64,000 nucleotides of DNA from Candidatus Latescibacterota bacterium (GCA_965237525.1 CBDEFO010000007.1:416001-480000); one strand, 5' to 3'; counted from the stretch's first letter, positions 19,603 through 63,957 are shown. Notes: generated by a model from the sequence alone, not told the origin. Made by a program: numbers and translations.

Positions 19603-19771
19603 GTGGAAAGGCTGAATTGGGATGCATTTCTTCTAACAGACCACTTTAGAAGGAGTTAAGCGATGAAACGGATCGCAGTTGTGAGTGTTATCAGTCTAAT
19701 TGTCCCATTTGTCTGGGGAGGCATTCTGGCAAACGCGTTATGTTGGGTCTTTAACAAGGAGGAGTTTTACG

Positions 19772-21595: not shown

Positions 21596-21703
21596 GTGCG
21601 CAGGCCGGGCACTTGTGTGTTGCCAGCCTGGTTCCCCTATTTGCCTGCGGAAGTATTCTGGCAAACGCGTTCTGTTGGGTCTTTAACAACGAGGAGTTAT
21701 ACG

Positions 21704-23524: not shown

Positions 23525-23584
23525 GTGCAAAGGCTGAATTGGGATGCATTTCTTCTAACGGACCAGCACAAAATGAGATATAAC

Positions 23585-25405: not shown

Positions 25406-25574
25406 GTGCAAAGGCTGAATTGGGATGTATTTCTTCTAACGGACCAGAGTAGAAGGAGTTATAACATGGAATGCATTGCACTTGTGAGTGTTATCAGCTT
25501 GGTTCCCCCATTTGCCTGCGGACGTATTTTGGCAAACGCGTTCTGTTGGGTCTTTAACAACGAGGAGTTATACG

Positions 25575-27680: not shown

Positions 27681-27807
27681 AGATTATACAAGAATAGTGG
27701 CCTTTCTGTTTGTCAAGGACACCTATTTGTCAAGGACACCTATTCGGGGAATGCATGCGTGAACTAAAGATGTTGATCACAGCGGTACTTTGAAAAAGGG
27801 GTATACT

Positions 27808-36032: not shown

Positions 36033-36296
36033 TTTACCAACTAGGTAGTTGCCCGCCTGGCCGTCGGACGACGGCAGTTCGTTGTCAGGCTCAGACGTGA
36101 CTTTCAAGCACGGCTCTACCACCTGTGGGTGGCAGGTAACTGATAGCTCTTGCTTCGGAGGTGAGCCCATGGACCTGCCTACCAAGACAAATCCACAGGT
36201 GGATATTGGAATAAAGGGCCCTCATCTGGGAAAGTGAATTGGCCGGTCGCAGCGTGCCAACAAAACGGATCTTAACTCGCTGGAGGGAGATGGAAC

Positions 36297-38861
36297 ATGA
36301 AAAAACGGAGCATGGTTGCCTATGCAGTCGTAGCCGTCGGATTAACAGCCTTCAATGTCAGAGGAGAGGGGGAAGCCAACATGCAGGATAGTTCCGTTGC
36401 GCCTATGGAGTGGATGAAACTGGATCGAGACAAGGGTTACGTTGTCTTTAATTACAGCACGCTGAAGAACCTGCCGCCTTCGCATGTGCCCACTCCGGAC
36501 GACGTTGTGAAGAAGGTTTCGTGCGCCTTAGCCAGGGATGAGTACGAGTCCATTCAGATCGGCGTGCACGCGATCTCAGACGGCGTCAAGGACGTCCGGA
36601 TCGAGGTGGAATCGGACCTCGAGGTGACCGTTTACCATCGCATCGACCCTGGCGTCAAACAGAAACTAGCTGAAACGGACATGCCGTGGCTGAGCACGAT
36701 ACCCGGAGAAGTCTTTCTGCAGCGGGGTGATGTCGTAGCCGACCTTCCCAGGGGCACGAGCGTCAATTTCTGGCTGACGTTTCTTGCGGATCGCGAGACA
36801 TCCGAGGGTCCGCACGCGGGCAAGATCCGCATCAAACCCGCGGGCAAGCCGGTGACGGTTGTTGACCTCAACGTACGGGTGCGACCCATAGTGCTGCAGA
36901 CGCCGCGCGCCGCGTTCGGCATGTTCTATCGCGGGGGTTCCCTGCCTGACTATAGGGACATGGCGGTGCACGGGCAGAACTCGGTCACGTTCTACGGGGC
37001 GGGAGACTTCAGTGAGTCGCCACCCAAGAGCAGCCGGCTGCCGAAGTCCCTGGGGCTGGCGAAGGAGGCGGGACTCATCCACCCGGATGTGCCGTGTCTC
37101 ATTCTACAGGGCAACATCCCGAACATCGAGGAAGGACAGAGAAGAGCGGCAGTGGCGTGGCTGGAGGCGCAACGACTGGAGCAGGGATGGCCGGAGATCA
37201 TCGTATACGGCTGGGATGAGCCGCCCTATCCCGCGCCCGGGTTGAGGGAAGAGTATCTTCCTATGCGCGACGTGTCCATGCGGTTGGGGACAGGCATGTC
37301 TGGCACGGCGGCGTACGCGCACGGTGACGTCCACGATGTGTGGATCGTTCATGACGGACATATCACGCCCGAGATGCGGGCCGAGGCGGAGCGCCGCGGA
37401 GCGCAGGTCTGGACGTATTCGTATCGCATACTGAGAAAAGGTTACAAGCCGGTTCGGCAGCGTTACTATGCGGGACTTTACACCTGGGCGCACCGGCTTG
37501 GGGGGAATGTCGTATGGGCCTACACCGACGGAACCCGCCACGGCCATGTCTGGTGGTTGCCCGGCAGTGACGAGCCGATGCCCGTCACCGGCTGGGAAGC
37601 GCGTCGCGAGGGCGTTGACGACTATCGCTATCTCCAGATGGTCGAGGACTGCGCGGCGGCGAACGAGGGTGATCCCCTAGCCGTGGAGGCGGCCGCATGG
37701 CTCGAGGCCCTGCGGGCCCGCCTGACCCCGTTCGATCCCTACCTGGCCGAGGCGGGAAAACCGTTGACCTTCGATGAATACGACGAGATCCGGGCAACGG
37801 CGTCCGACTATATTGAGAAGCTGGGCGCGCCGACCGGACGCGTTGAGCCGTGGCCGGTCACGAACCTCAAGGACGAGGCCGCTTCTTTCCGCGACAGGTC
37901 CGTAAAAGAGTGCATTGCGGGGTTGGGGGGTTCCCATGCCTCCGAGCGTCGAAGCGCTGCGTGGGTGCTCTTTGAGATGGGGGCGGAGGCAGCCCCTGCC
38001 GTAGATGCGCTTGTCGCTGCGCTTGAGGACCCGGAGGTTCGCATCCCCGCTCTGCGAGCGCTTGAGGGTATCGGCCCGGATGCGTACTCAGCGGCGCCGA
38101 GAGTTTCGTCGCTTCTGTCGCATGCCGATGCCTACGTGCGTCTGGGTGCAACGTTTGCCCTCACCGGCATGACGCGTCCCCCGAGCTGGGATGAAGATGT
38201 AAAGGGCTACCTACCGGATGAGCTGTCGTTGTATGCTCGCACTGTTGTCGCACCGCTTCGCCAGGCGCTGCGAGACGGGGACCGCTCGGTCGTGCAGATG
38301 GCCGCACTCGGGCTGTTCCTCTCCGGTGAGGCTGGTGCACCCGCGCTGCCTGACGCGATGGCTCTGCTGGGACCCCACAAGGAGTTCGGTTTACGGGTGC
38401 TATCGGGGATAGGTCCGGGGGCTGCGAGCGCCGTTCCCGTCCTCGTAAAGACGTACGAGGAATCCAAAGGCGGAGGAGACTGGCTCACCGCCCGGACGCT
38501 GGCGGCGATCGGGCCGGCGGCCTCTGAGGCCGTCCCGATTCTGGAGGAGTATCTCACGCCGGAAAACTGGTACCTGGCTGACGCCTGCTACGCCCTCTAC
38601 TGCATTCGTGGGGGCGAGTCGGAGCTCAAGACCCTGGCGGAGATTGTGGGAGAGAAGAGCCGTCCAAGAGGCGGCGCAGAGTGGCGGGCTGCCGCCAGGT
38701 TCCTCTCGGCCCTGGGCAGCGAGGCCGCGTCTGTCGTCCCCCTGGTCAGGGAACGGCTACCACTTCTGGATACCGATCCTTCGCTAAGGCGCTACATCGA
38801 GGACGTTTTCTTCAAGAGAGTGGAGGAAGGGGCGCCGCCTCTCAGATTGCTGTTGCGGTGA
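36297..38861 (+). CDS. GH123/DUF4091-like glycoside hydrolase with C-terminal HEAT repeats, copy 1
   Basis: Signal MKKRSMVAYAVVAVGLTAF; ARDEYESIQ, YGWDEP, WEARREGVDDYRYL; repeated L..IGP.A..AVP.L HEAT units. Confidence 0.8.
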   Translation: MKKRSMVAYAVVAVGLTAFNVRGEGEANMQDSSVAPMEWMKLDRDKGYVVFNYSTLKNLPPSHVPTPDDVVKKVSCALARDEYESIQIGVHAISDGVKDVRIEVESDLEVTVYHRIDPGVKQKLAETDMPWLSTIPGEVFLQRGDVVADLPRGTSVNFWLTFLADRETSEGPHAGKIRIKPAGKPVTVVDLNVRVRPIVLQTPRAAFGMFYRGGSLPDYRDMAVHGQNSVTFYGAGDFSESPPKSSRLPKSLGLAKEAGLIHPDVPCLILQGNIPNIEEGQRRAAVAWLEAQRLEQGWPEIIVYGWDEPPYPAPGLREEYLPMRDVSMRLGTGMSGTAAYAHGDVHDVWIVHDGHITPEMRAEAERRGAQVWTYSYRILRKGYKPVRQRYYAGLYTWAHRLGGNVVWAYTDGTRHGHVWWLPGSDEPMPVTGWEARREGVDDYRYLQMVEDCAAANEGDPLAVEAAAWLEALRARLTPFDPYLAEAGKPLTFDEYDEIRATASDYIEKLGAPTGRVEPWPVTNLKDEAASFRDRSVKECIAGLGGSHASERRSAAWVLFEMGAEAAPAVDALVAALEDPEVRIPALRALEGIGPDAYSAAPRVSSLLSHADAYVRLGATFALTGMTRPPSWDEDVKGYLPDELSLYARTVVAPLRQALRDGDRSVVQMAALGLFLSGEAGAPALPDAMALLGPHKEFGLRVLSGIGPGAASAVPVLVKTYEESKGGGDWLTARTLAAIGPAASEAVPILEEYLTPENWYLADACYALYCIRGGESELKTLAEIVGEKSRPRGGAEWRAAARFLSALGSEAASVVPLVRERLPLLDTDPSLRRYIEDVFFKRVEEGAPPLRLLLR

Positions 38862-44354: not shown

Positions 44355-44450
44355 TTGGGAGATGGTTATGATATTCGCACAGTTCAGGAATTACTCGTCC
44401 ATAAGGATGTCAAAACGACAATGATTTATACTCACGTTCTAAGCCGTTGA
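44355..44450 (+). pseudogene. intI: Integron integrase C-terminal remnant
   Basis: [31 protein letters not shown], the typical IntI box II with catalytic Tyr; upstream part missing. Confidence 0.9.
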
Positions 44451-48420: not shown

Positions 48421-49033
48421 CTACTCAAAGGGGGCATATTTGCATCTCTTGAAGTAGCTCAAGACACTGCTTCTGGGTAGGAGGAACTGTTTCCCCGGTT
48501 TGTGGCTGCGACCAATCCAGACTCTATAAACATTGTGCACGTGCCTTTCCAAGCACCTTAAGAACTGGGCTTCCTCTTTGACTGTAACGAGGTCTTAAAC
48601 ATTCATTTTTTCCTCCCTTGAGAAAACGTTCCCTGGCTATTACGTTTTTTTGTCCAGGGAGACTGAAGAGATTGAAGGGTTTTCTATGAACTTTTCCAGA
48701 AAAAAGAAAAAATGTTTTTGAAAAAGTTACTGTCTAAGGGTTCAAACCCTTCAGTCCTTCACTATTCTCTCTATGTTTTTGAAGCCGGAAACCACGATAG
48801 TAAACGCTACCGCCGTTCCTCTATCCCAGCCCGCGAAGCCCGGCTCATCAGGTGGATATTGGAATAAAGGGCCCACATCTGGAGAAGCCAATTGGCCGGT
48901 CGCGGCAGGCTGACAACTCGGATCTTAACTCGCTGGAAGGAGATGGAACATGAGAAAACGCAGCATAGTTGCCTATACGGTCCTAGCCGTCGCATTAACA
49001 GCTCTTGATGTCAATGGAGAGGGGTAAGCTAAC

Positions 49034-51571
49034 ATGCAGGATAATTCAGGTGCACCCATGGAGTGGATGAAACTGGATCGAGACAAGGGCTACGTAGTAT
49101 TCAATTACGGTACGCTTAAGAACCTGCCGCCTTCGCACGTACCCACTCCGGATGACGTTGCGAAGGAGGTTTCATGCGCGTTAGCCAGGGATGAGTACGA
49201 GTCTATTCAGTTCGGCGTGCACGCGCTGTCGGACGACATCAAAGATATACAGGTGAAGGTGGAATCAGACCTGCAAGTGACCATTTATCATCGGATCAGC
49301 CCGCGTGTTAAAGAAAAACTGGCATCCGAACCAGCCGAATTGGATGAGATTGCGCGGCGGACACCAAGTCAGATACATCTGCAGCGAGGGAACGTGTTTG
49401 AAGAGCTTCCGACAGGTCAGAGCGTCAACTTCTGGCTTACGTTCAGGGCGGATGCCGAGACGACAGAGGGTCTGCACCGGGGGAAGGTCCGGATAGAAGC
49501 TGTGGGCAGGCGGGGGACTGTGCTGGATCTCGAGGTGAAGGTGCGGCCGTTCCAGCTTCAGCGCCCCAGAGTGCCGTTTGGCGTGTACTTTCGAGAAGAC
49601 ATGCTTCCGAAACGTTTTGGGGGCTTGGCGACGCCGAAGGAATCGGTACTGGCCATGTACCGGGACATGGCGGAGCACGGCCACAATTCCAGTTGGTTCT
49701 ACCCGACCGGAAGCTTTCGCGACTTGCCGCCCAGGAACGGCCATGCGCTTGATAAGCTGATCCCGCTGGCCCAGCAGGCCGGCCTCCTTGACCCGGAAGT
49801 GCCCAGCTTTATCTGCGGCGGAATTCCCGGGGGCCTCAATGATGAGCAACTGAAGGCGGCGGCTGCCTGGTTGGAAGCCGAGCGAAGGCAACGGGGATGG
49901 CCTGAGTTGATTGTATTTGGCACGGACGAGCCGAGTTACCCGCGGGACTATGATGCTGTCAGCAGAGAGTTGAGGAATCTGCGCGGTTTTCCCGTGCGTG
50001 TGGCCGTGGATCTGTCCGGAACGTCGGCATACGGGTATGGCGGCGATCTTTGCGACATCCAGAACGTGATGGATGGAATGATCTCGCCTGAGATGCTGGA
50101 CGAGGCGAGACGCATAGGAACGGAAATCTGGACATATTCGTTTCGCATATGGCGAGAGGATTTCCATCCTTTCCGCCAGCGCTACTTTGCGGGCCTCTAC
50201 ACCTGGACATACCAGCTCGGGGGCAATTGGGTCTGGGCGTATCACCACGGCCCTCACCGGCATGTCTGGTTTGCGCCTGAGAGTCACGAGCCGATGCCCG
50301 TAACTGCCTGGGAGGCCCGGCGGGAAGGGATTGATGACTACCGATACCTGCAGATGGTCGAGGACTGCGTTGCGGCCAATCCAGACGAGACACTGGCGAT
50401 TGAAGCGTCAGCGTGGTTGCAGGCCCTGAGGGTCCGTCTTTCGGCCACCGTTCCCAACGAAGTGGAGGTCGGCAAGCCTCTGGAGCTTGATGAATACGAC
50501 CAGATTCGAGCCAGGGCGGCCGACTATATCCAGAGGCTGGGTCCTGTTTCGAACGAGGCTGTAGCTCGTCCGCCGATATCGCACGCCAAGGATGAGGCAG
50601 CATCTTACCGGGGTAAGTCGGTGAGACAGTGTATCGCCGGCCTGGCCAGTTCGGATGTGTCAGAACGTCGCGCTGCTGCCTGGGCACTCTTTGAGCTAGG
50701 ACCGAAAGCGGCGCAGGCCGCAGAGCCGCTGGCCCGGTTGCTTGATGATCCCGAGGTGCGAATACCCGCCCTGCACGCACTTGAGCACATCGGTCCGGAG
50801 GCATTTCGGGTAGTGCCCGAGATAGTACGGCTACTGAATCATCCCGATTTCTACGTTCGTGTGGGTGCCGTCTTGGCTCTGGGTGAGATCGGGTGCCCGT
50901 TGAATAAACGCGACCGCAGCGGGCGCAGATCGCCTTCGGAATGGGTCGCGATCGTCGCCGAACCGTTGATGGTCACCTACCGAGATGATGATGCATCGCT
51001 GTCATCCCAGGCCGCGGGAATGCTCTCCGTCATGGAGAATCTAGCCAAGCCCGTTCTGGCGGAGGCGATCACAATGCTCGATGACCCTTCTCACAGGCGT
51101 CAAAGCGCAGCAATCGGCCTCATCACTGGACTGGGTCCGGATGCCGCAGCAGCAGTGCCAAAGCTTATCGAAATGCACGAGAACAAATCTGAGGACATCA
51201 GGTACATTAACACGCTGGCTGCTATCGGTCCGGCTGCCAAATCGGCCATTCCGGTTCTGGAAGAATACGCTGCAAAGGAGGACTCCGGTCCTAACCGGGC
51301 AGAGTCATACTATGCGCTTTTCTGTATCCGGAATGAGCTTTCCGACCTCCGGAAAATGGTCGAATTGCTAAAGGACGCGGATGAGGACCTCGAGACGAAG
51401 AAGCGGGTTGTAAAGCTGCTCAATGAACTGGGAGCGAAGGCCGCACCTGTTGCGGATGAGATCCGCCAGATGGTCGAGTCGGGGAAGTTTTCCGATTGGG
51501 AAGAGGACCTGGAGTCTTTCCTTGACAAAGTGAAAAGGGGAGAGGTGCCGGGTGTTTCTTTCAGGTGGTAG
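49034..51571 (+). CDS. GH123/DUF4091-like + HEAT-repeat protein, copy 2 (signal peptide cut off by an in-frame stop)
   Basis: FGTDEP, WEARREGIDDYRYL, HEAT units; in-frame leader from ATG 48950 ends in TAA at 49025. Confidence 0.8.
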   Translation: MQDNSGAPMEWMKLDRDKGYVVFNYGTLKNLPPSHVPTPDDVAKEVSCALARDEYESIQFGVHALSDDIKDIQVKVESDLQVTIYHRISPRVKEKLASEPAELDEIARRTPSQIHLQRGNVFEELPTGQSVNFWLTFRADAETTEGLHRGKVRIEAVGRRGTVLDLEVKVRPFQLQRPRVPFGVYFREDMLPKRFGGLATPKESVLAMYRDMAEHGHNSSWFYPTGSFRDLPPRNGHALDKLIPLAQQAGLLDPEVPSFICGGIPGGLNDEQLKAAAAWLEAERRQRGWPELIVFGTDEPSYPRDYDAVSRELRNLRGFPVRVAVDLSGTSAYGYGGDLCDIQNVMDGMISPEMLDEARRIGTEIWTYSFRIWREDFHPFRQRYFAGLYTWTYQLGGNWVWAYHHGPHRHVWFAPESHEPMPVTAWEARREGIDDYRYLQMVEDCVAANPDETLAIEASAWLQALRVRLSATVPNEVEVGKPLELDEYDQIRARAADYIQRLGPVSNEAVARPPISHAKDEAASYRGKSVRQCIAGLASSDVSERRAAAWALFELGPKAAQAAEPLARLLDDPEVRIPALHALEHIGPEAFRVVPEIVRLLNHPDFYVRVGAVLALGEIGCPLNKRDRSGRRSPSEWVAIVAEPLMVTYRDDDASLSSQAAGMLSVMENLAKPVLAEAITMLDDPSHRRQSAAIGLITGLGPDAAAAVPKLIEMHENKSEDIRYINTLAAIGPAAKSAIPVLEEYAAKEDSGPNRAESYYALFCIRNELSDLRKMVELLKDADEDLETKKRVVKLLNELGAKAAPVADEIRQMVESGKFSDWEEDLESFLDKVKRGEVPGVSFRW

Positions 51572-51780
51572 TCCTGATGTCACTTTGGAATTGCTGGCCG
51601 AATCAGACGGGACGGTTCTATTTGATCGAATTGCCGTCAACTGCCCCGTCAAGATAGGCAATGGCTTGCATAAAAAACCTCTATCAGTTCCTGTGCGGTT
51701 GGTCAGTTGTTTCCATGTCATTGGAGGCGAACAAAGAGATCAGGGCCAATAGCATTCGGCGTGCTCATTGCTGCCCGGCG
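49500..51780 (+). repeat. Long direct repeat of ~55690-57965
   Basis: Offset ~6185 bp; 50275-50900 differs from 56460-57085 by about one base on visual alignment. Confidence 0.9.
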
Positions 51781-52765
51781 TTCAGGGTCGAATTTTGATT
51801 GTGCCGGCATAGATGCTGGTTATGGGCTTGGTGGCGTGGGCGATCCTGGCGCCGTTTGTCGCCTTGGCGGAGGCCGGCGAGGTCAAAGTGACCGTACCCA
51901 GACAACCGAATCTGGAGGTAATTGATCTCTTCACCAACAAGGTAGTGGCTCGCCTCGACGCCGGACCTTCGACGTCAAGCTTAGACGGAACTTCCAGGGG
52001 AGGCTCTACCACCTGCGGCTGGCAGGTAACTGATAGCTCTTGTTTTGAAGGTGAACTCATGTCCCGGCCTAGCAAACCGGATCATCAGGTGGATATTGGA
52101 ATAAAGGGGAAATAAACGGCCCATATCTGGGAAAGCGAGTTGTCCGGTCGCAGCGTGCGGACAACTCGGATCTTAACTCGCTGGAAGGAGATGCAACATG
52201 AGAAAACGCAGCATAGTTGCCTATACATTGCTGGCCGTTGGATTAACGGCTCTCAATGCCTGTGGGCCCATGGAGTGGATGAAACTGGATCGAGACAAGG
52301 GTTACGTTGTCTTTAAGTACAGCACGCTTAAGAACCTGCCGCCTTCGCACGTGCCCACGCCGGGCGACGTTGCCGAGAAGGTTTCATGCTCGTTAGCCGG
52401 GGATGAGTACGAGCCGGTTCAGATTGGTGTTCACGCGCTGGCAGGTGGCTTGACCAACATCCGGGTCACGGTGATATCTGACCTCAAGGTGACGGTCTAT
52501 CACCGCATCGATCCAGGCATCAAGCAACAAGTGGCCTCAGAACCCGGCGCGACGGTGCTAATGCGGGTGCCAAGCGAAGTGTATTTGCAGCGAGGAGAGG
52601 TTGTTGGCGAACTTGCTAAAGGCGAATCCATCAATTTTTGGCTGCTGTTCCGTGCTGATGCTGAAACTTCTCCCGGCGTGCATCAGGGTAAGATCCGCAT
52701 TAAGCCGGACGGGCGGGCAGCGACGGAGTTGGACCTGGCGGTGCGCGTCAGGCCTTTTCAACTGG
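51215..52765 (+). repeat. Long direct repeat of ~60383-61930
   Basis: Gene tail + ~620-bp spacer + next gene head, highly similar at offset ~9166 bp. Confidence 0.9.
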
Positions 52766-54801
52766 CGGCACCGCGAGCAGTATTTGGCATGTGGTTTCGG
52801 GAGGATATGTTACCTGAGCGATTTGGATCCTGGGAGATAGAGGATCAGGATGCTCTGGCGATTTACCGGGATATGGCGGCGCACGGCCAGAACTCGGTCA
52901 CATTATATCATGCGGGACACTACGCCCAGTTGCCGCCACGAGGCAGCCGGATGATGGACAAGTCCCTTGCACTGGCCGTCGAGGCGGGGCTTATTCGCCC
53001 GGAAATTCCTGTTGTAGCCGTGCAAGCCGGAATCACCGGCCCGGCGTTTTCCCAAGCGCAGACGGAAGCGGCGGTGGCGTGGCTGGAGACGGAGCGGCGC
53101 AAGCGCGGCTGGCCGGAAATCATAATATTCGGCCGGGATGAAGGGCTTTATCCAGCGCCTGGGCTGAGAGAAACCTACGCTCCTCTGCGCCCGTTGCCCA
53201 TTCGCCTTATGACGGACACGGGTCACATCTCGACGCCGTACGCGTATGGTGATTTTCACGACGTGTTGAGCTTAGCCGATGGTATAGGCCCACCCGAGGT
53301 GCAGGCCGAGGCCAGCCGGATGGGCGCAGAAGTCTGGACCTATTCCTATCGCGTATGGAGGGAGAACTACAGCCCGCTTTGTGAGCGATACTATGCGGGG
53401 CTGTACCCGTGGGCACACAGGATCGGCGGCAATATGGTCTGGGTATACTCGGGCACCGGGGTTCACAGTCACGTCTGGTGGAAACCAGACAGCAACGAGC
53501 CGATGCCCATTACGGGTTGGGAGGGCCGCCGCGAAGGCGTTGACGACTACCGCTACCTTCAGATGGTCGAGGATCTTGTGCAGGCGAAGACGCCCGCCCC
53601 GTTAGCCATCGAGGCGGGGGTATGGCTGGAGGCGCTGAGGGCACGCCTCGCGCGCACGGCCATCAAAACGTACGATGTGGAGGCCGGCAAGCCCCTGGAT
53701 ATCGAGGAATATGACGCGATTCGAGCCACGGCGGCCGATTACATTGAGAAGCTCGGCCCGGTGGCGGACCGAGAAGAGCCACCCGTAGTCAGGGGTCTGA
53801 AAGACGAGGCTGCCGCCTTCCGCGGCAAATCGGTGGAACAGTGTGTCGCGGGACTGGGTGGTTCTGATGTCTGGCAGCGCCGGGCGGCGGCGTGGGCCTT
53901 GGTTGAACTGGGTCCCCAGGCCGCTCAAGCCACACCGGCGCTTGTCCGATTGCTCGATGATCCGGAAGTTCGCTTCCCCGCCTTGCGCGCACTTGAGGCG
54001 ATCGGCCCCGAGGCGTATCCGGCGTCGTCGAAACTAACCTCGCTTCTGTCACATCCCGATGCTTTCGTGCGCCTGGGCGCGACTTTTGCCTTGGCCGGCA
54101 TCGCTGGCCCACGGAGCTGGGATGTCGCTGTGAGCGGATATGCACCCGAGGATGTGTCGCCGTATGCTCATATGGTCGTGGCGCCGTTGCGGCAAGCGCT
54201 GCGTGATTCGTATTTGGACATCGCGCGGGTTGCTGCGTACGGGCTATCCCGTTGCGGCGAGGTCGCTGCACCGGCACTTCCCGACGCCATGAGGCTGGTC
54301 GCGGGCAAACCCACCGACGCGTCCACCGCCGCGATGCGGGTACTGGCCGGGATGGGACCGGCAGCCGCGGCTGCCGTCCCCCTTCTGATCAAATCTTACG
54401 CGGCCGCCGAAGGAAAAGATCGCGCCATCACCTGGACGCTGGCAGCCATCGGCCCGGCTGCGTCCGACGCCGTTACGGTCCTGGAGCAGTACCGCACGCC
54501 GGAAAACCCGCACCTGGCTGACACCTGCTACGCCCTGTTCTGCATTCGCGGCGAGGAATCAGACCTTAAAACAATGGCCGGGCAGCTGGGTGACAAGAGC
54601 CGGCCGGGGGGTTCCTCAGAATGGCAGGACGTCATCAGATTCCTCAATGCCCTCGGCGCCCGAGCTGCACCCGTCGTCCCCCTGGTGCTAGAGCGATTAC
54701 GGCTCCTGGACTCTGAACCTGATCTGAAGCGCCAACTCGAGTCGATACTTCTCCAAAGAGTCAAAAAAGGTGAAAGTCCCCTCAGATTGCTGCCGCGCTG
54801 A
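52198..54801 (+). CDS. GH123/DUF4091-like + HEAT-repeat protein, copy 3 (lipoprotein-like signal)
   Basis: MRKRSIVAYTLLAVGLTALNA-CG; FGRDEG, WEGRREGVDDYRYL, HEAT units. Confidence 0.82.
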   Translation: MRKRSIVAYTLLAVGLTALNACGPMEWMKLDRDKGYVVFKYSTLKNLPPSHVPTPGDVAEKVSCSLAGDEYEPVQIGVHALAGGLTNIRVTVISDLKVTVYHRIDPGIKQQVASEPGATVLMRVPSEVYLQRGEVVGELAKGESINFWLLFRADAETSPGVHQGKIRIKPDGRAATELDLAVRVRPFQLAAPRAVFGMWFREDMLPERFGSWEIEDQDALAIYRDMAAHGQNSVTLYHAGHYAQLPPRGSRMMDKSLALAVEAGLIRPEIPVVAVQAGITGPAFSQAQTEAAVAWLETERRKRGWPEIIIFGRDEGLYPAPGLRETYAPLRPLPIRLMTDTGHISTPYAYGDFHDVLSLADGIGPPEVQAEASRMGAEVWTYSYRVWRENYSPLCERYYAGLYPWAHRIGGNMVWVYSGTGVHSHVWWKPDSNEPMPITGWEGRREGVDDYRYLQMVEDLVQAKTPAPLAIEAGVWLEALRARLARTAIKTYDVEAGKPLDIEEYDAIRATAADYIEKLGPVADREEPPVVRGLKDEAAAFRGKSVEQCVAGLGGSDVWQRRAAAWALVELGPQAAQATPALVRLLDDPEVRFPALRALEAIGPEAYPASSKLTSLLSHPDAFVRLGATFALAGIAGPRSWDVAVSGYAPEDVSPYAHMVVAPLRQALRDSYLDIARVAAYGLSRCGEVAAPALPDAMRLVAGKPTDASTAAMRVLAGMGPAAAAAVPLLIKSYAAAEGKDRAITWTLAAIGPAASDAVTVLEQYRTPENPHLADTCYALFCIRGEESDLKTMAGQLGDKSRPGGSSEWQDVIRFLNALGARAAPVVPLVLERLRLLDSEPDLKRQLESILLQRVKKGESPLRLLPR

Positions 54802-54899
54802 AGAAGGGCTCGTCGCCGCGGTTGCTCATCTGGAATCAGAGGGAGATAATACTTATATACAGGCGGGACTGCTTGTTCAATTATTTCCGCGTTGAAAAC

Positions 54900-54928
54900 T
54901 TGACCGGGCTTTCCGATAATGCTAAAAT
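54900..54928 (+). promoter_or_regulatory. Sigma70-type promoter
   Basis: TTGACC-N17-TAAAAT in the AT-rich spacer before copy 4. Confidence 0.5.
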
Positions 54929-55146
54929 TCAGAATACTGGAACAAGACAAAGTCTCAGAAAAACATGTCCGACCCTGGCTGAAAAAACTAGCTTCGTGTC
55001 ATTTCACCGGCCGCAAAAGAGTTACCTAATTATTGAGCCTTAACAAAAGCGACCTTTTTTTATTGACTCAAACCGACGGCAAGGGCAAAACAGTCCTTCA
55101 TGCGAGGACAATCCGGAGTAACGCCGAGCGAAAGGAGAGAGGCAAG

Positions 55147-57756
55147 ATGAGAATGTATAGTCTTATGGCAACAGTATTGTTGATGGGACGCAGTCTGGGA
55201 GCAGGGACGGGATACGCCGAGAACGGTGAAGGCGGGCCGGGGACAAACTGGACGGCAGCCGAAAAGCTGAAGGGGTACGTGGTCTTTGAGTACAGTACGC
55301 TGGAGAATCTTCCGCCCGCTCACGTACCGACTAGGGAGGCGATCGTGGACACGGTCTCATGCGCTTTAGCCAGGGATGAGTACGAGTCTATTCAGTTCGG
55401 CGTGCACGCGCTGGCCGATAGCTTGACGAACATCCGGGTCACGGTAGTATCTGACCTCGAGGTGACGGTCTATCACCGCATCGATCCAGGCATCAAGCAA
55501 CAACTGGCGTCAGAACCAGCCGAATTGGATGAGATTGCGCGGTGGGTGCCGAGCCAGATACATCTGCAGCGAGGGGACGTGTATGAAAAACTTCCGGCAG
55601 GCCAGAGCGTCAACTTCTGGCTGACATTCCGGGCGGATGGTGAGACGCCAGAGGGTCTGCACCTGGGGAATATCCGAATAGAGGCTGCGGGCAGGCGGGG
55701 GACTGTGCTGGGTCTCGAGGTGAAGGTGCGGCCGTTCCAGCTTCAGCGCCCCAGAGTGCCTTTTGGCGTGTACTTTCGAGAAGACATGCTGCCGAAACGT
55801 TTTGGGGGCCTGGCGACACCGAAGGAATCGGTACTGGCGATGTACCGGGACATGGCGGAGCACGGCCACAATTCCAGTTGGTTCTACCCGTTGGGAAGCT
55901 TTAGCGACTTGCCGCCCAGGAACAACTATGCGCTTGACAAGCTGATCCCGCTGGCCCAGAAGGCCGGCCTCCTTGACCCGGAAGTGCCCAGCTTGATCGC
56001 AGGCGGAATTCCCGGGGGCCTCAATGATGAGGAACTGAAGGCGGCGGCTGCCTGGTTGGAAGCAGAGCGCACGCAACGGGGATGGCCTGAGTTGATTGTA
56101 TTTGGCACGGACGAGCCGAGTTACCCGCGGGACTATGATGCTGTCAGCAGAGAGTTGAGGAATCTGCGCGGTTTTCCCATGCGGGTGGTCGTGGATCTGT
56201 CTGGAACGTCGGCATACGGGTATGGCGGCGATCTTTGCGACATCCAGAACGTGATGGATGGAATGATCTCGCCTGAGATGCTGGACGAGGCGAGACGTGT
56301 GGGAACAGAGATCTGGACGTATTCGTACCGCATATGGCGCGAGCATTTCTATCCTTTCAGCCAGCGCTACTTTGCGGGGCTCTACACCTGGACATACCAG
56401 CTCGGGGGCAATTGGGTCTGGGCGTATCACCACGGGCATCACCGGCATGTCTGGTTTACGCCTGAGAGTCACGAGCCGATGCCCGTAACTGCCTGGGAGG
56501 CCCGGCGGGAAGGGATTGATGACTACCGATACCTGCAGATGGTCGAGGACTGCGTTGCGGCCAATCCAGACGAGACACTGGCGATTGAAGCGTCAGCGTG
56601 GTTGCAGGCCCTGAGGGTCCGTCTTTCGGCCACCGTTCCCAACGAAGTGGAGGTCGGCAAGCCTCTGGAGCTTGATGAATACGACCAGATTCGAGCCAGG
56701 GCGGCCGACTATATCCAGAGGCTGGGTCCTGTTTCGAACGAGGCTGTAGCTCGTCCGCCGATATCGCACGCCAAGGATGAGGCAGCATCTTACCGGGGTA
56801 AGTCGGTGAGACAGTGTATCGCCGGCCTGGCCAGTTCGGATGTGTCAGAACGTCGCGCTGCTGCCTGGGCCCTCTTTGAGCTAGGACCGAAAGCGGCGCA
56901 GGCCGCAGAGCCGCTGGCCCGGTTGCTTGATGATCCCGAGGTGCGAATACCCGCCCTGCACGCACTTGAGCACATCGGTCCGGAGGCATTTCGGGTAGTG
57001 CCCGAGATAGTACGGCTACTGAATCATCCCGATTTCTACGTTCGTGTGGGTGCCGTCTTGGCTCTGGGTGAGATCGGGTGCCCGTTGGATAAACGCGACC
57101 GCAGCGGGCGCAGATCGCCTTCGGAATGGGCCGCGATCGTCGCCGAACCGTTGATGGTCGCCTACCGGGATGATAATGCATCGCTGTCATACCTGGCGGC
57201 GGGAATGCTCTCCGTCATAGGTGGGTTTGCCAGGCCCGCTCTGCCGGAGGCGATCACAATGCTCGATGACCCTTCTCACACGCGTCAAAGCGCAGCAATC
57301 GGCCTCATCACTGGACTGGGTCCGGATGCCGCCGCAACAGTGCCAAAGCTCATCGAAATGCACAAGAACAAATCTGAGGACATCAGGTACATTAACGCGC
57401 TGGCTGCTATCGGCCCGGCTGCCAAATCGGCCATTCCGGCTCTGGAAGAATATGCTGCAAAAGAGGACTCCGGTCCTAATCGGGCAGACTCATACTATGC
57501 GCTCTTCTGCATCCGGAATGAGATTTCCGACCTGCGGAAAATGGTCGAGTTGCTAAAGGACGCGAATGAGAACACCGATACGAAGAAACACGTTGTAAAA
57601 CTCCTCAACCAACTGGGAGCGAAGGCCGCACCTGTTGGGGATGAGGTCAATCAGATGCTCAAGTCGGGAGAGTTTTCCGACTGGGAAGAGGACCTGCAGT
57701 CTCTCCTTGAGAAAGTTGAGACGGGAGAGGTGCCGGGTGTTTCTTTCAGGTGGTAG
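55147..57756 (+). CDS. GH123/DUF4091-like + HEAT-repeat protein, copy 4
   Basis: AAGGAG/GAGG RBS, distinct leader MRMYSLMATVLLMGRSLGAGTGYA; body near-identical to copy 2. Confidence 0.82.
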   Translation: MRMYSLMATVLLMGRSLGAGTGYAENGEGGPGTNWTAAEKLKGYVVFEYSTLENLPPAHVPTREAIVDTVSCALARDEYESIQFGVHALADSLTNIRVTVVSDLEVTVYHRIDPGIKQQLASEPAELDEIARWVPSQIHLQRGDVYEKLPAGQSVNFWLTFRADGETPEGLHLGNIRIEAAGRRGTVLGLEVKVRPFQLQRPRVPFGVYFREDMLPKRFGGLATPKESVLAMYRDMAEHGHNSSWFYPLGSFSDLPPRNNYALDKLIPLAQKAGLLDPEVPSLIAGGIPGGLNDEELKAAAAWLEAERTQRGWPELIVFGTDEPSYPRDYDAVSRELRNLRGFPMRVVVDLSGTSAYGYGGDLCDIQNVMDGMISPEMLDEARRVGTEIWTYSYRIWREHFYPFSQRYFAGLYTWTYQLGGNWVWAYHHGHHRHVWFTPESHEPMPVTAWEARREGIDDYRYLQMVEDCVAANPDETLAIEASAWLQALRVRLSATVPNEVEVGKPLELDEYDQIRARAADYIQRLGPVSNEAVARPPISHAKDEAASYRGKSVRQCIAGLASSDVSERRAAAWALFELGPKAAQAAEPLARLLDDPEVRIPALHALEHIGPEAFRVVPEIVRLLNHPDFYVRVGAVLALGEIGCPLDKRDRSGRRSPSEWAAIVAEPLMVAYRDDNASLSYLAAGMLSVIGGFARPALPEAITMLDDPSHTRQSAAIGLITGLGPDAAATVPKLIEMHKNKSEDIRYINALAAIGPAAKSAIPALEEYAAKEDSGPNRADSYYALFCIRNEISDLRKMVELLKDANENTDTKKHVVKLLNQLGAKAAPVGDEVNQMLKSGEFSDWEEDLQSLLEKVETGEVPGVSFRW

Positions 57757-58195
57757 CCCTGATATCACTTTAGAATCGCTGGCCGAATCGGACGGGACGG
57801 TCTATTTGACCGAATTGCCGTCAACTGCCCCGTCAAGATAGGCAATGGCTTGCAGAAAAAACACCTATCAGCTCCTGTGCAGTTGGTCAGTTGTGTCCAT
57901 GTCATTGGAGAACGAATAAAAGGATCAGGGCCAATAGCGTTCGGCGTGCCCATTGCTGCCCGGCGTTCATGCTTGAATTTTGATTGTGCCGGAATGGCTT
58001 GGGGGCGTGGGCGATCCTGGCGCCGTTTGTCGCTTTGGCGGAGGCCGGCGAGGTCAAAGTGACCGTACCACGACAACCGAATCTGGAGGTAATTAATCTC
58101 TTCACCAACAAGGTAGTGGCCCGCTTGGAGGCCAGACGACGGGCCTTCGACGTCTGGATTAACGGCTCTCAATGTCAACGGAGGGGGAAGCTAAC

Positions 58196-60739
58196 ATGAA
58201 GGATAATTCAGGTGCGCCCATGGAGTGGATGAAACTGGATCGAGACAAGGGTTACGTTGTCTTTAATTACAGCACGCTGAAGAACCTGCCGCCTTCGCAC
58301 GTGCCCACGCCGGGCGACGTTGCCAAGCAGGTTTCATGCTCGTTAGCCGGTGATGAGTACGAGCCGGTTCAGATTGGTGTTCACGCGCTGGCCGATGGCT
58401 TGACCAACATCCGGGTCAAGGTGGCATCGGATCTCGAGGTGACGGTCTATCGCCGCATTGATCCAGGCCTCAGGAAACAGCTGGCTGCAGAACCCGAGTC
58501 GGTGGTGCAGGAGTTGGTGCCAAGCGAGGTGTATCTGCAGCAAGGCGAGGTTGTCGGAGAACTTGCTAAAGGCCAATCCATCAATTTTTGGCTGCTGTTC
58601 CGTGCTGATCCTGACACACCTCCCGGGGTGCATCAGGGTAAGATCCGCATTGAGCCGGACGATCGGGCAGCGACCGAGCTGGACCTGCGGGTGCGTGTCA
58701 GGCCGTTTCAACTGGCAGAGCCGCGAGCCGTATTTGCCGTGTACTTTCGTGAGGACATGCTGCCCAAGCGCTTTGGGACCTGGGACGTGGAGGATCAGAT
58801 GGCGCTGGCGATTTACCGTGATATGGCTGCGCACGGGCAGAACTCGGTTACATTCTATGGTGGGGGAGACTACCGGACCCAGTTGCCGCCGCTAAACAGC
58901 CGGATGGTGGAGAAGTCCCTCGCACTAGCCCAAGAGGCGGGGCTCACTCGCCCGCGAATTCCCGTTGTAACCGTGGCCAGCATGGTCGGTGATGACATTT
59001 CCCGAACGCAGCAGAAAGCGGCGGTGGCCTGGCTAAGGAAGGAGGGGCGCCGGCTCGGCTGGCCGGAGATTGTCTTATTCGGCCGGGATGAAGGGATGTA
59101 TCCAGCGCTCGGGATGAGGGAAACCTATGCTCCCCTGCGCCCGTTGCCAATTCGCCTGTCGACGGACATGAGTCACATCTCGCCGGCGTACGCCTATGGA
59201 GATTTTCACGACGTGTGGACCATGCACGACGGCTTGCTCACACCAGAGTTGCAGGCCGAGGCAAGACGGATGGGTGCAGAGGTCTGGAGCTACTCCTATC
59301 GCATATGGAGGGAGAGCTTCAGCCCGGTTACTCAGCGCTACTACGTCGGACTGCACACCTGGGCGCACCGGATCGAAGGCAATTGGCTGTGGGGATACAC
59401 TCATGTGCGTCACAGTCAGGTCTGGTGGAAACCGGATAGCCACGAGCCGATGCCCCAAACGGGTTGGGAAGGCCGCCGCGAAGGTGTTGACGACTATCGC
59501 TACCTGCAGATGGTCGAGGACCTGGTCGAGGCGAAGACACCCGACCCGACAGCCATCGAGGCGGGGGCATGGCTGGAGGCGCTGAGGGCACGCTTCACGC
59601 TCACGACCATCGATCCGCACGAGGTGGTGGCAGGCAAGCCCCTGGACGTCCAGGAATATGACGCGATTCGAGCCACGGCGGCCGATTACATTGAAAAGCT
59701 CGGCCCGATAGTGGACCGTAAAGAGCGGCGGACCGGTAGGCGTCTGAAGGACGAGGCTGCGGCCTACCGCGGCAAGTCGGTGAAACAGTGTGTCGCGGGG
59801 CTTAATGGTTCTGATGTTTCTAAACGCCGGGCGGCGGCGTGGGCGTTGTATGAACTGGGCCCCCAGGCCGCTCAAGCGACACCGACACTTATCCCGTTGC
59901 TCGATGATCCGGAAGTGCGCTTTCCCGCCCTGCACGCACTCGAGGCGATCGGCCCCGATGCGTATCCGGCGGCGCCGAACATAGCCTCGCTTCTGTCACA
60001 TCCTGATGCTTTCGTGCGCCTGGGCGCGACTTTCGCCTTGGCCGGCATCGCCCGCCCACGAAACTGGGATGAAGATGTGAACGGATACGCACCCGAGGAT
60101 GTGTCGCCTTATGCTCAGACGGTTGTACCGCCGTTGCGGCAAGCGCTACGTGATGTGCATCAGGATGTCGTGTGGATTGCTGCGTACGGGCTGTCCCGTT
60201 GCGGAGAGGCCGGCGCGCCGACACTGCGCGACGCAATGAAGATGGCCCAGGAAACAAGCGACAACCGCGCGGCCGGGCTGCGGGTGCTGTGTGGGATGGG
60301 TCCGGCAGCCGCGGCAGCCGTCCCCCTTCTAGTCGAATCTTACACGGCCGCCAAAGGTGAAGATCGCCCCGTCACCTGGACGCTGGCAGCCATTGGCCCG
60401 GCTGCCAAATCGGCCATTCCGGCTCTGGAAAAATATGCTGCAAAGGAGGAATCCGGTCCTAACCGGGCAGACTCATACTATGCGCTTTTCTGCATCCGGA
60501 ATGAGGTTTCCGACCTCCGGAAAATGGTCGAGTTGCTAAAGGACGCGGATGAGGATCCCGAGATGAAGAAGCGGGTTGTAAAGCTCCTCAATGAACTGGG
60601 AGCGAAGGCCGCACCTGTTGCGGATGAGGTCCGCCAGATGGTCGAGTCGGGGAAGTTTTCCGATTGGGAAGAGGACCTGGAGTCTTTCCTGGAGAAAGTG
60701 AAAAGGGGAGAGGTGTCGGGTGTTTCTTTCAGGTGGTAG
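58196..60739 (+). CDS. GH123/DUF4091-like + HEAT-repeat protein, copy 5 (leaderless chimera)
   Basis: Core like copy 6, last ~110 aa like copy 2; upstream RBS and leader deleted. Confidence 0.8.
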   Translation: MKDNSGAPMEWMKLDRDKGYVVFNYSTLKNLPPSHVPTPGDVAKQVSCSLAGDEYEPVQIGVHALADGLTNIRVKVASDLEVTVYRRIDPGLRKQLAAEPESVVQELVPSEVYLQQGEVVGELAKGQSINFWLLFRADPDTPPGVHQGKIRIEPDDRAATELDLRVRVRPFQLAEPRAVFAVYFREDMLPKRFGTWDVEDQMALAIYRDMAAHGQNSVTFYGGGDYRTQLPPLNSRMVEKSLALAQEAGLTRPRIPVVTVASMVGDDISRTQQKAAVAWLRKEGRRLGWPEIVLFGRDEGMYPALGMRETYAPLRPLPIRLSTDMSHISPAYAYGDFHDVWTMHDGLLTPELQAEARRMGAEVWSYSYRIWRESFSPVTQRYYVGLHTWAHRIEGNWLWGYTHVRHSQVWWKPDSHEPMPQTGWEGRREGVDDYRYLQMVEDLVEAKTPDPTAIEAGAWLEALRARFTLTTIDPHEVVAGKPLDVQEYDAIRATAADYIEKLGPIVDRKERRTGRRLKDEAAAYRGKSVKQCVAGLNGSDVSKRRAAAWALYELGPQAAQATPTLIPLLDDPEVRFPALHALEAIGPDAYPAAPNIASLLSHPDAFVRLGATFALAGIARPRNWDEDVNGYAPEDVSPYAQTVVPPLRQALRDVHQDVVWIAAYGLSRCGEAGAPTLRDAMKMAQETSDNRAAGLRVLCGMGPAAAAAVPLLVESYTAAKGEDRPVTWTLAAIGPAAKSAIPALEKYAAKEESGPNRADSYYALFCIRNEVSDLRKMVELLKDADEDPEMKKRVVKLLNELGAKAAPVADEVRQMVESGKFSDWEEDLESFLEKVKRGEVSGVSFRW

Positions 60740-61362
60740 TCCTGATGTCACTTCGGAATTGCTGGCCGAATCAGACGGGACGGTCTATTTGACCGTATTG
60801 CCGTCGACTGCCCCGTCAAGATAGGCAATGCCTTGCATAAAGAACGCTATCAGCTCCTGTGCGGTTAGTCAGTTGTGTCCATGTCATTGGAGACGAATAA
60901 AGGGATCAGGGCCAATAGCATTCGGCGTGCTCATTGCTGCCCGGCGTTCAGGGTCGAATTTTATTGTGCCGGCATAGATGCTGGTTATGGGCTTGGTGGC
61001 GTGGGCGATCCTGGCGCTGTTTGTCGCCTTGGCGGAGGCCGGCGAGGTCAAAGTGACCGTACCAAGACAACCGAATCTGAAGGTAATTGATCTCTTCACC
61101 AACAAGGTAGTGGCTCGCCTCGACGCCGGACCTTCGACGTCAAGCTTAGACGGAACTTCCAGGGGAGGCTCTACCACCTGCGGCTGGCAGGTAACTGATA
61201 GCTCTTGTTTTGAAGGTGAACTCATGTCCCGGCCTAGCAAACCGGATCATCAGGTGGATATTGGAATAAAGGGGAAATAAACGGCCCATATCTGGGAAAG
61301 CGAGTTGTCCGGTCGCAGCGTGCGGACAACTCGGATCTTAACTCGCTGGAAGGAGATGGAAC

Positions 61363-63957
61363 ATGAGAAAACGCAGCATAGTTGCCTATACATTGCTGGC
61401 CGTTGGATTAACGGCTCTCAATGCCTGTGGGCCCATGGAGTGGATGAAAGTGGATCGAGACAAGGGTTACGTTGTCTTTAATTACAGCACGCTTAAGAAC
61501 CTGCCGCCTTCGCACGTGCCCACGCCGGGCGACGTTGCCAAGCAGGTTTCATGCACCTTAGCCGGGGATGAGTACGAGCCGGTTCAGATTGGTGTTCACG
61601 CGCTGGCCGATGGCTTGACGAACATCCGGGTCACGGTGGTATCTGACCTCGAGGTGGCGGTCTATCACCGCATCGATCCAGGAATCAAGCAACAAGTGGC
61701 CTCAGAACCCGGCGCGACGGTGCTAATGCGGGTGCCAAGCGAAGTGTATTTGCAGCGAGGAGAGGTTGTTGGCGAACTTGCTAAAGGCGAATCCATCAAT
61801 TTTTGGCTGCTGTTCCGTGCTGATGCTGAAACATCTCCCGGCGTGCATCAGGGTAAGATCCGCATTAAGCCGGACGGGCGGGCGGCGACGGAGCTGGACC
61901 TGGCGGTGCGCGTCAGGCCTTTTCAACTGGCGGAGCCGCGAGCAGTATTTGCCGTGTACTTTCGTGAGGATATGTTACCCAAGCGATTTGGATCCTGGGA
62001 ACTGGAGGATCAGGTTGCGCTGGCGTTTTACCGTGATATGGCTGCGCACGGGCAGAACTCGGTTACATTCTATGGTGGGGGAGACTACCGGACCGAGTTG
62101 CCGCCACTAAACAGCCGGATGGTGGAGAAATCCCTCGCATTGGCCAAAAAGGCGGGGCTCACTCGCCCGCGAATTCCCGTTGTAACCGTGGCCAGCATGG
62201 TCGGTGACGACATTTCCCGAACGCAGCAGAAGGCGGCAGTGGCCTGGTTGGGGAAGGAGGGGCGCCGGCTCGGCTGGCCGGAGATTGTCTTATTCGGTCG
62301 GGATGAAGGGATGTATCCAGCGCTCAGGTTTCGGAAAATCTTTACTCCCCTGCGCCCGTTGCCGATTCGCGTGTCGGCGGATATGAGTCACATCTCGCCG
62401 GCGTACGCCTATGGTGATTTTCTCGACGTGTGGACTGTGCACGACGGCTTGCTCACACCCGAGTTGCAGGCCGAAGCCAAACGGATGGGTGCAGAGGTCT
62501 GGAGCTACTCCTATCGCATATGGAGGCAGAGCTTCAGCCCGATTACTCAGCGCTACTACGTCGGACTGCACACCTGGGCGCACCGGATCGAAGGCAATTG
62601 GCTGTGGGCATACTCTCACGGGCCTCACAGTCAGGTGTGGTGGAAACCGGACAGCCACGAGCCGATGCCCCATACTGGTTGGGAGGGCCGCCGCGAAGGC
62701 GTTGACGACTATCGCTACCTGCAGATGGTCGAGGACCTGGTCGAGGCGAAGACACCCGACCCGACAGCCATCGAGGCGGGGGCGTGGGTGGAGGCGCTAA
62801 GGGCACGCCTGACGCTAAAATCCATCCTGCCGCACCAGGTGGAGGCAGGCACGCCGTTAACGATTGAGGAGTATGACGCGATTCGAGCCACGGCGGCCGA
62901 TTACATTGAAAAGCTCGGCCCGATAGTGGACCGGAAAGAGCGGCGGACCGGTAGGGGTCTGAAGGACGAGGCTGCGGCCTTCCGCGGCAAGTCGGTGAAA
63001 CGGTGTATCGCGGGGCTGCGTGGTTCTGATGTTTCTAAACGCCGGGCAGCTGCGTGGGCGCTGTATGAACTGGGCCCCCAGGCCGCTAAAGCCACGCCGG
63101 CGCTTATCTCGTTGCTCGATGATCCGGAAGTGCGCTTTCCGGCCCTACATGCACTCGAGGCGATCGGCCCCGATGCGTATCCGGCGGCGACGAAAATAGC
63201 CTCGCTGCTGTCACATCCTGATGCTGTCGTGCGCCAGGGCGCGACGTTCGCCCTGGCCGGCATCGCCCGCCCACGAAACTGGGATGAAGATTTCAACGGA
63301 TATGCACTCGAGGATGTGTCGCCGTATGCTCACGTAGTCGTACCTGCGTTGCGGCAAGCGTTGCGTGATTCGCATCAGGACATCGTGTGGATAGCCGGGT
63401 ACGGGCTGTCCCGTTGCGGCGAGGCCGCTGCACCGGCACTGTCCGACGCAATGAAGCTGGTCGCAGGCAAACCGCACGATAACGTCGGCGCCGCGACGCG
63501 GGCGCTGGCCGGGATGGGGCCGGCAGCCGCGGCAGCCGTCCCGCTTCTAGTCGAGCATTACACCGCTGCCAAAGCCAAAGATCGCTATGTCACGCTGGCG
63601 CTGGCAGCCATTGGACCGGCTGCATCCGACGCCGTTGCCGTCCTGGAGCGGTACCGCACGCCGCAAAACTCACACCTGGCTGACACGTGCTACGCCCTGT
63701 TCTGCATTCGTGGCGAGGAGTCAGACCTCAAAACAATGGTCGGGTTGCTGGGCGACAAGGAGAATTGCGGGGCGTGGGAGGATGTCGTCAGGTACCTCAT
63801 CGCTCTCGGCGCCAAAGCCGCACCGGTCGCCCCCCTGGTGCGGGATCGATTGTCCCTTCTGAAGGCTAGACCTGATCTGGTCAGCCAACTCGAGTTGACA
63901 TTTTTCCGCAGAGTTGAGGAAGGCGGAAGCCCCCTCAGGTTGCTGCCGTACAACTGA
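61363..63957 (+). CDS. GH123/DUF4091-like + HEAT-repeat protein, copy 6 (lipoprotein-like signal)
   Basis: First ~190 aa like copy 3, core like copy 5, tail like copies 1 and 3. Confidence 0.82.
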   Translation: MRKRSIVAYTLLAVGLTALNACGPMEWMKVDRDKGYVVFNYSTLKNLPPSHVPTPGDVAKQVSCTLAGDEYEPVQIGVHALADGLTNIRVTVVSDLEVAVYHRIDPGIKQQVASEPGATVLMRVPSEVYLQRGEVVGELAKGESINFWLLFRADAETSPGVHQGKIRIKPDGRAATELDLAVRVRPFQLAEPRAVFAVYFREDMLPKRFGSWELEDQVALAFYRDMAAHGQNSVTFYGGGDYRTELPPLNSRMVEKSLALAKKAGLTRPRIPVVTVASMVGDDISRTQQKAAVAWLGKEGRRLGWPEIVLFGRDEGMYPALRFRKIFTPLRPLPIRVSADMSHISPAYAYGDFLDVWTVHDGLLTPELQAEAKRMGAEVWSYSYRIWRQSFSPITQRYYVGLHTWAHRIEGNWLWAYSHGPHSQVWWKPDSHEPMPHTGWEGRREGVDDYRYLQMVEDLVEAKTPDPTAIEAGAWVEALRARLTLKSILPHQVEAGTPLTIEEYDAIRATAADYIEKLGPIVDRKERRTGRGLKDEAAAFRGKSVKRCIAGLRGSDVSKRRAAAWALYELGPQAAKATPALISLLDDPEVRFPALHALEAIGPDAYPAATKIASLLSHPDAVVRQGATFALAGIARPRNWDEDFNGYALEDVSPYAHVVVPALRQALRDSHQDIVWIAGYGLSRCGEAAAPALSDAMKLVAGKPHDNVGAATRALAGMGPAAAAAVPLLVEHYTAAKAKDRYVTLALAAIGPAASDAVAVLERYRTPQNSHLADTCYALFCIRGEESDLKTMVGLLGDKENCGAWEDVVRYLIALGAKAAPVAPLVRDRLSLLKARPDLVSQLELTFFRRVEEGGSPLRLLPYN

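Follow-up and report, generated by a model that had tools for sequence, protein, structure and literature searches.

The tandem array of GH123-like/HEAT genes at positions 48,950 to 63,957 of the window is a real, still-evolving mosaic of a known kind and not a new molecular system, and its chimeric copies were most likely produced by general homologous recombination, that is, by unequal crossover and gene conversion, with the products likely filtered by purifying selection. The window is the whole stretch of DNA that was analysed, 64,000 nucleotides of a Candidatus Latescibacterota genome (GCA_965237525.1, CBDEFO010000007.1:416001-480000; genome G000 below). The preliminary description of this DNA had proposed an undescribed diversification system akin to antigenic variation. 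The recombination between copies that it inferred, without a dedicated recombinase, is supported and has continued after the split from a congener, as seen from the differences between the two genomes. The undescribed system is not supported, because other arrays of the genome behave alike, no conserved expression locus was found and the events are rare relative to point mutation.

The array region is made up of five ORFs of 845-907 aa on the same strand (copies 2-6). The family also comprises a seventh copy, frameshifted and lying immediately beyond the window, an eighth on contig C8, and two remote relatives. The features of the region are as follows.

36297..38861, plus strand: copy 1, outside the array, yet exchanging sequence with it
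48950..51571, plus strand: copy 2, head resembling that of copy 1, catalytic core and tail of A type
51572..52197, plus strand: spacer present three times in the array, once behind each A-type tail
52198..54801, plus strand: copy 3, 867 aa, B1-type core, head ending LNAC
54802..55146, plus strand: unique spacer, in which two sigma70-like matches (10/12) lie at 54892-54928
55147..57756, plus strand: copy 4, core and tail of A type, with a head and a signal peptide not shared with the others
~55404..55518, plus strand: conversion patch of copy-3/6 type within copy 4, matching those two copies at 95-96% identity
56459..57159, plus strand: near-identical tract common to copies 4 and 2 (50274-50974 in copy 2), exact matches of 412 and 216 nt
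57757..58171, plus strand: spacer upstream of copy 5, ~260-nt deletion at 58154/58155
58172..60739, plus strand: copy 5, head and core of B2 type joined to an A-type tail, without signal peptide
60394..60406, plus strand: B-to-A tail junction of copy 5, in LAAIGPAA, where the parents share ~14 exact bases
60740..61362, plus strand: third copy of the spacer, with 96.8% identity to 51572-52197 and the remnant ORF at 60978-61280
61363..63957, plus strand: copy 6, 864 aa, copy-3-like head, copy-5-like core, B-type tail
61081..61933, plus strand: conversion tract common to copies 6 and 3 (51916-52768), 97% in the coding part

The block consisting of an A tail, the spacer and a B head is present three times. 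The spacer at 51572..52197 contains a degraded 3' terminus from an unrelated family that occurs in tandem on contig C8; the 100-aa ORF within it (51813-52115) is this remnant and was ruled out as an accessory gene. The shortened heads of copies 3 and 6, which end in LNAC, presumably represent a lipoprotein-like signal, as the ending resembles a lipobox by eye; all signal types were assigned by eye and hydropathy only. Sigma70-like matches occur across the region at chance level (six found, 5.1 expected).

Junctions were mapped by triplet max-chi tests, with permutation p ≤ 0.0005 for all of them. The patchwork structure recognised in the preliminary description was confirmed at most of the points that it named. 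Copies 2 and 4 are alike in core (84-100%) and tail (82-94%), whereas their heads are not shared, with 42-73% identity over the first ~360 columns. Copy 5 groups first with copy 6 (698 of 772 informative sites) and then with copy 2 (151 of 158), changing partner within LAAIGPAA at 60394-60406. Copy 6 groups first with copy 3 (50 of 59 sites) and then with copy 5 (221 of 284), and its change near VRPFQLA maps to 61932-61934 (VRPFQL^A). The patch of copy-3/6 type in copy 4 was likewise recovered at ~55404-55518 (35/37 sites). The return of copy 6 to a copy-3-type tail, which had been placed near 63410, was not recovered; a sharp change was found instead at 63612-63625, where it is copy 5 that departs, besides a weaker change at ~63300, and the tails of copies 6 and 3 are only 67-88% alike, which points to old shared ancestry.

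One congruent tree for all segments, named at the outset as evidence against a mosaic, was not obtained. With segments picked after the breakpoints had been seen, the segment trees conflicted by tens to hundreds of log units, and AU tests rejected the core tree both for the patch data and for the tail data. The conversion tracts measure ~0.1-0.85 kb and connect many copy pairs, and the exchange partners are often only ~60% identical, although mutS and mutL look intact. Junctions were not consistently located in the most similar windows (29th-98th percentile).

Comparison with a congeneric genome assembled as a single contig (Ca. Latescibacterota, ~95% identical at the locus; G001), an approach recommended in the preliminary description, showed that the copy-5 junction and the copy-3-like head on copy 6 are present there too, and that other chimeras have arisen. 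The G001 array has the order copy 2/4, 5, 6, 7, without copy 3 and without the copy-4 head and upstream region, and thus holds four copies against six in G000 when copy 7 is counted. Its single A copy is copy-2-like until columns 545-551 and copy-4-like beyond, and the tail of this copy has been homogenised with that of its own copy 5, to which it is 98% alike; in one window the two G001 tails are 98% alike, compared with an 88-90% match to their orthologs. Copy 1 of G001 carries a swapped head of the copy-3/6 type (LNAC), and its signal type differs from that of copy 1 in G000. A dispersed copy lying among IS-like repeats in G001 is a three-way chimera of a copy-1 body, a patch from the C8 copy and a copy-6 tail, and it switches a few codons past LAAIGPAA. 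Two independent tail switches, in copy 5 and in this dispersed copy, therefore fall within ~30 nt at LAAIGPAA; as two events among ~10 junctions they are not distinguishable from chance, and LAAIGPAA was rejected as a true hotspot. By tally, ~6 events separate the gene sets of the two genomes, against 290 synonymous differences in five ortholog pairs, or ~1 fixed rearrangement per 50 synonymous changes.

Four sequencing runs (X1, X5, X6 and X8) were compared as contigs, which drop rare variants, so that rare forms are invisible in them. When short-sided joints in X5, X6 and X8 (side of 21-40 nt) were left out of the count, one well-supported alternative junction was found across the four runs: a contig of run X1 (depth 3.8) joins 49180 to 55366, which is another copy-2/4 junction. 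An X1 contig at 55366-55713 spans the copy-4 patch. No inter-copy joint was present in runs X5 and X6, and X8 contained only short-sided ones. Close homologs were found only in G001 among 60 relatives, and among loci from other genomes (41 of them at least 12 kb long) two matched stretches occurred in 6 of 68 and more than two in none, some of the pairs perhaps being split genes. The expansion thus looks lineage-specific among the genomes searched.

Exchange between divergent copies has its junctions outside the catalytic domain. Ten separate junctions inside the genes join copies of this kind, and each of them maps either to residues 1-191 or to residue 677 and beyond; none lies in residues 192-520, which make up 37% of the columns (p ~0.01, post hoc), and none in residues 192-676 (p ~0.0004, post hoc). 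The conversion tract common to copies 3 and 6 (61081..61933) stops at the boundary between beta-sandwich and barrel. Exact runs of at least 12 nt are about equally dense in the catalytic part and in the tail (4.5 and 4.6 per kb), and missing homology is therefore no explanation for the junction-free core. Tracts within the barrel connect only sister copies of one type, which means that the shuffling re-pairs accessory parts and builds no new active sites; many tracts homogenise copies, and catalytic domains of different types are not joined to each other. Selection against hybrid catalytic domains would be the simplest cause of this pattern. Modular polyketide synthases provide a precedent (PMC1592344, in the portion available): homologous recombination replaces some of their domains, the catalytic KS domain is never seen to be replaced, and purifying selection is the only kind detected. 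The array genes differ from these in being stand-alone predicted hydrolases rather than assembly lines.

Pfam recognised nothing in the array proteins except HEAT repeats, located around residues 540-630. Copy 3 was modelled with AlphaFold2 (pLDDT 93, pTM 0.91, 86-row alignment), and the model predicts a beta-sandwich at ~35-188, then at ~192-520 a (beta/alpha)8 barrel whose end is helical, and a HEAT solenoid at 543-860. The best structural matches of this model were all GH123-type beta-N-acetylgalactosaminidases, with 8k2j found at E 1.7e-18 by Foldseek and aligned over 433 residues with Z 24.1 and rmsd 3.2, compared with Z 14.9 for the next family. A profile of the N-terminal part also matched 8k2j at 5e-14 and placed the DE pair of the family on ADEP of 8k2j and MDER of BvGH123. 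This pair, which corresponds to the consecutive DE motif reported to be catalytic in GH123-type enzymes (PMC11087588, in the part available), is kept in 13 of 13 aligned copies from both genomes and is invariant in 38 of 38 rows. PF13320 (DUF4091 / GH123_cat) did not match the N-terminal parts of copies 1, 3 and 4, two of which gave a weak GH123_N match (E 0.05-0.06); the family profile aligns through the region of 8k2j and 8k2f that corresponds to PF13320, and PF13320 was present in 2 of the 120 homologs listed.

The predicted fold, the profile match and the DE pair together make glycosidase a sound prediction, GH123-like in mechanism. The array proteins resemble the GH123 beta-N-acetylgalactosaminidases (NgaDssm 8k2j, NgaCa 8k2f, BvGH123 and CpNga123; PMC11087588, in part) in the N-terminal beta-sandwich followed by a (beta/alpha)8 barrel, in Z scores of 21-24 over ~410-455 residues, and in the alignment of the DE pairs; they differ in being 11-17% identical to them, in carrying ~320 extra residues of HEAT repeats, and in that their activity is predicted only. 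Among related loci (L089-L101), some homologs match the catalytic part only and others have FG-GAP/ASPIC or GH2-type extra domains, the family being modular across Planctomycetota, Lentisphaeria and Armatimonadota.

The copies had been described as having intact ORFs throughout, which does not hold, since copy 2 has a stop, copy 5 a deletion, copy 7 a frameshift and copy 3 a deletion in run X6. The signal peptide of copy 2 is interrupted by an in-frame TAA (49025-49027), and an 845-aa ORF restarts at the ATG at 49034. In copy 5 the ~260 nt lost at 58154/58155 included the 5' leader together with the greater part of the signal peptide. Both lesions are common to G000 and G001, and the dispersed copy of G001 carries a third, different stop, so that loss of the signal peptide arose in three separate ways while the rest of the gene stayed under purifying selection. 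Copy 3 is missing or frameshifted elsewhere: it has no ortholog in the G001 array, and in run X6 it carries deletions of 26 and 12 nt, the truncated database protein P0013 matching the copy-3 deletion. Orthologs in the two genomes have dN/dS values of 0.19-0.27, which do not stand out from those of neighbouring genes (mostly 0.16-0.48).

These observations also bear on the possibility that accessory-domain shuffling is adaptive, in other words that general recombination supplies the chimeras and selection keeps new pairings of core, export signal and HEAT tail. Such a reading fits the avoidance of the catalytic domain by the junctions, the different signal types of copy 1 in the two genomes, the retention of the copy-5 chimera in both, and the fact that the signal-less copies 2 and 5 keep ORFs of 845-855 aa with dN/dS of 0.25-0.27 in both genomes. 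The same junction pattern, however, is expected from purifying selection alone, no segment has dN/dS above 1, constraint can be mimicked when functional copies act as donors in conversion, copy 3 is absent or broken elsewhere, and the signal types rest on eye and hydropathy. We regard adaptive shuffling as unlikely. It is equally doubtful that the lineage uses routine tandem-array recombination as an evolvability device, in which a small set of fixed GH123-like cores would be re-paired with export heads (secreted, lipoprotein-anchored or cytoplasmic) and HEAT tails and the pairings selected; if it did, the new pairings would alter the location and the partners of each glycosidase.

Under general recombination filtered by purifying selection, the history of the array may have run as follows. 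A pair consisting of an A copy, the spacer and a B copy may have been duplicated first. A single unequal crossover, in which a B copy recombined with an A copy at LAAIGPAA, would then have produced copy 5, the third spacer and copy 6, which would also account for the sisterhood of copies 5 and 6 and makes a separate return of copy 6 unnecessary. Later conversions may have laid down the head tract of copies 3 and 6, the patch in copy 4, the core tract of copies 2 and 4 and the tail tract of copies 2 and 5, and crossovers between copies 2 and 4 would have deleted copy 3, leading to the state in G001 and in run X1 if the direction was that of loss. Exchange of this kind would presumably depend on RecA. 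Hybrids within the catalytic domain were probably purged by selection, which would explain why only the signal/beta-sandwich parts and the HEAT tails are seen to move.

Exchange is not confined to the GH123-like array, and the same pattern occurs in other tandem arrays of the genome. One mosaic test was applied to 43 of the 45 paralog families with at least three members (two IS-like families were omitted), with low power for three-member families and with family 2 reduced to 12 of its 18 members. Mosaics were detected in 8 of the 43 families, comprising 6 of the 14 with at least three tandem neighbours (the GH123-like family included) and 1 of the 16 fully dispersed ones. The GH123-like family had the highest max-chi of the 43 (494), followed by 414, 282 and 233, which are values of the same order. 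Among the mosaic families are an array of eight TPR genes on contig C6, whose heads are GT2 or methyltransferase domains, a GHL10 array, a DUF4838 array, and a six-gene array on contig C8 that holds a 1113-nt exact tract.

The eight tandem TPR genes (C6:308220-323697, L103) have different catalytic heads, GT2 in one and an FkbM-type methyltransferase in the other of the two that were scanned, together with a 913-nt exact shared tract, and they illustrate the swapping of heads onto common tails more strongly than the GH123-like array does. The C8 array (C8:737654-758310, L104) consists of six secreted-looking mosaic paralogs of ~770 aa, with no Pfam match in the two that were scanned; its copy number differs in G001, its 3' end is the source of the remnant in the GH123-like spacers, and copy 8 adjoins it. 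Within the window, four tandem DUF4838 genes at ~19700-27419 are mosaic (max-chi 282), and G001 has three copies of them, the first apparently broken. The genome as a whole carries many tandem paralog families.

Several dedicated or permissive mechanisms were considered and rejected. Since the frames of mutS (885 aa) and mutL (614 aa) are open, as is that of recA, loss of mismatch repair was dismissed as the cause of exchange between divergent copies. A diversity-generating retroelement was rejected because G000 (96.6% complete) has no RVT_1 match and mismatches were not A-biased in any of the four pairs examined. A shufflon was rejected because all copies lie on one strand, no arm of the 25 longest of 95 inverted pairs spans a mapped junction, and the search for tyrosine-family recombinases in the window found none intact, only a 27-aa integrase-like remnant at ~44361-44441.

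A dedicated system resembling antigenic variation, with copy 4 as expression site and copies 2 and 5 as silent donors, is very improbable. Copy 4 is indeed the only copy with a unique upstream region bearing promoter-like matches, and copies 2 and 5 lack export signals; yet the head and upstream region of copy 4 are absent in G001, the promoter matches are at chance level, copies 3 and 6 and the C8 copy exchange sequence as well, contigs of X5 and X6 (in which rare variants are dropped) contain no inter-copy joint, and ~6 events against 290 synonymous differences, with no adenine bias, do not fit such a system. Cassette antigenic variation needs one promoter-bearing copy and silent donors (PMC8223754, in part). 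The array resembles it in its segmental chimeras derived from paralogous copies and differs in the lack of a conserved expression site, in exchange among many pairs of copies and apparently in several directions, in an apparently slow rate as judged between the two genomes, and in encoding predicted enzymes rather than surface antigens. That the chimeras reflect misassembly, the artefact anticipated in the preliminary description, or strain mixing is likewise very improbable and was rejected: the genome is a MAG with 4% contamination, and the X5 and X6 contigs listed end 18-30 nt beyond the copy-5 junction, too short to count as bridging it, but a separate, ~95% identical genome also has the copy-5 junction, the copy-3-like head on copy 6, the stop in copy 2 and the deletion in copy 5, an X1 contig spans the copy-4 patch, and the swapped tracts are 3-11% different from their donors, which is not expected of misjoined reads.

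General recombination among paralogs is thus the reading that is retained. Weighing against it are the top max-chi of this family among the 43, exchange at only ~60% identity with mutS and mutL looking intact, the inconsistent placement of junctions relative to the most similar windows, the two neighbouring tail switches at LAAIGPAA, the three separate routes to signal-peptide loss, and the limited power of the mosaic control. The reading has precedents. Gene conversion and unequal crossover occur among bacterial paralogs such as tuf and nifH (PMC8223754, in part), and PE/PPE paralogs undergo conversion and duplication more rarely than point mutation (PMC12046097, in part). The array shares with such concerted evolution the patches of hundreds of bases, the chimeric copies, the rarity relative to point mutation and the lack of a dedicated enzyme, and both of its marks were found here, namely within-genome tracts too alike for the history of the genes (the G001 tails) and incongruent segment trees. 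It differs in that its partners are often ~60% identical, in that it encodes predicted glycosidases, and in that it belongs to an uncultured Latescibacterota lineage with several such arrays in one genome. Literature searches found nothing on gene conversion in Latescibacter, on tandem duplication in Latescibacterota, or on mosaics of glycosidase/polysaccharide paralogs, and the main text of PMC12993501 does not contain the terms GH123, paralog, duplicat or tandem. The array accordingly offers a clean two-genome case of recombination reshaping paralog arrays in an uncultured phylum, between ~60% identical copies and with mismatch-repair genes present. Its natural chimeras also indicate which parts of the GH123-like/HEAT family are exchangeable, and this family may hold new hexosaminidase specificities.

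Additional observations were made in the neighbourhood and in the genome. Copy 7 (L001:5763-8878, just beyond the window), frameshifted in G000, is intact (~1050 aa) in G001 and has an extra C-terminal domain with a weak match to a GH2 sugar-binding domain (E 0.07). Two 99.8% identical IS-like copies, 31 kb apart, flank the region (34774-36036 of the window and ~3845-5107 of L001), and both are missing at the corresponding sites of G001. A GH67-like gene at 15338-17125 is present once in G000 and twice in G001, and a gene of the aminoglycoside 3-N-acetyltransferase family (PF02522) lies at 27790-28743 among genes for glycan use. Two IS-like ORFs of 466 and 396 aa have 133 and 51 near-identical copies in the 4.6-Mb G000 genome, a recent expansion.
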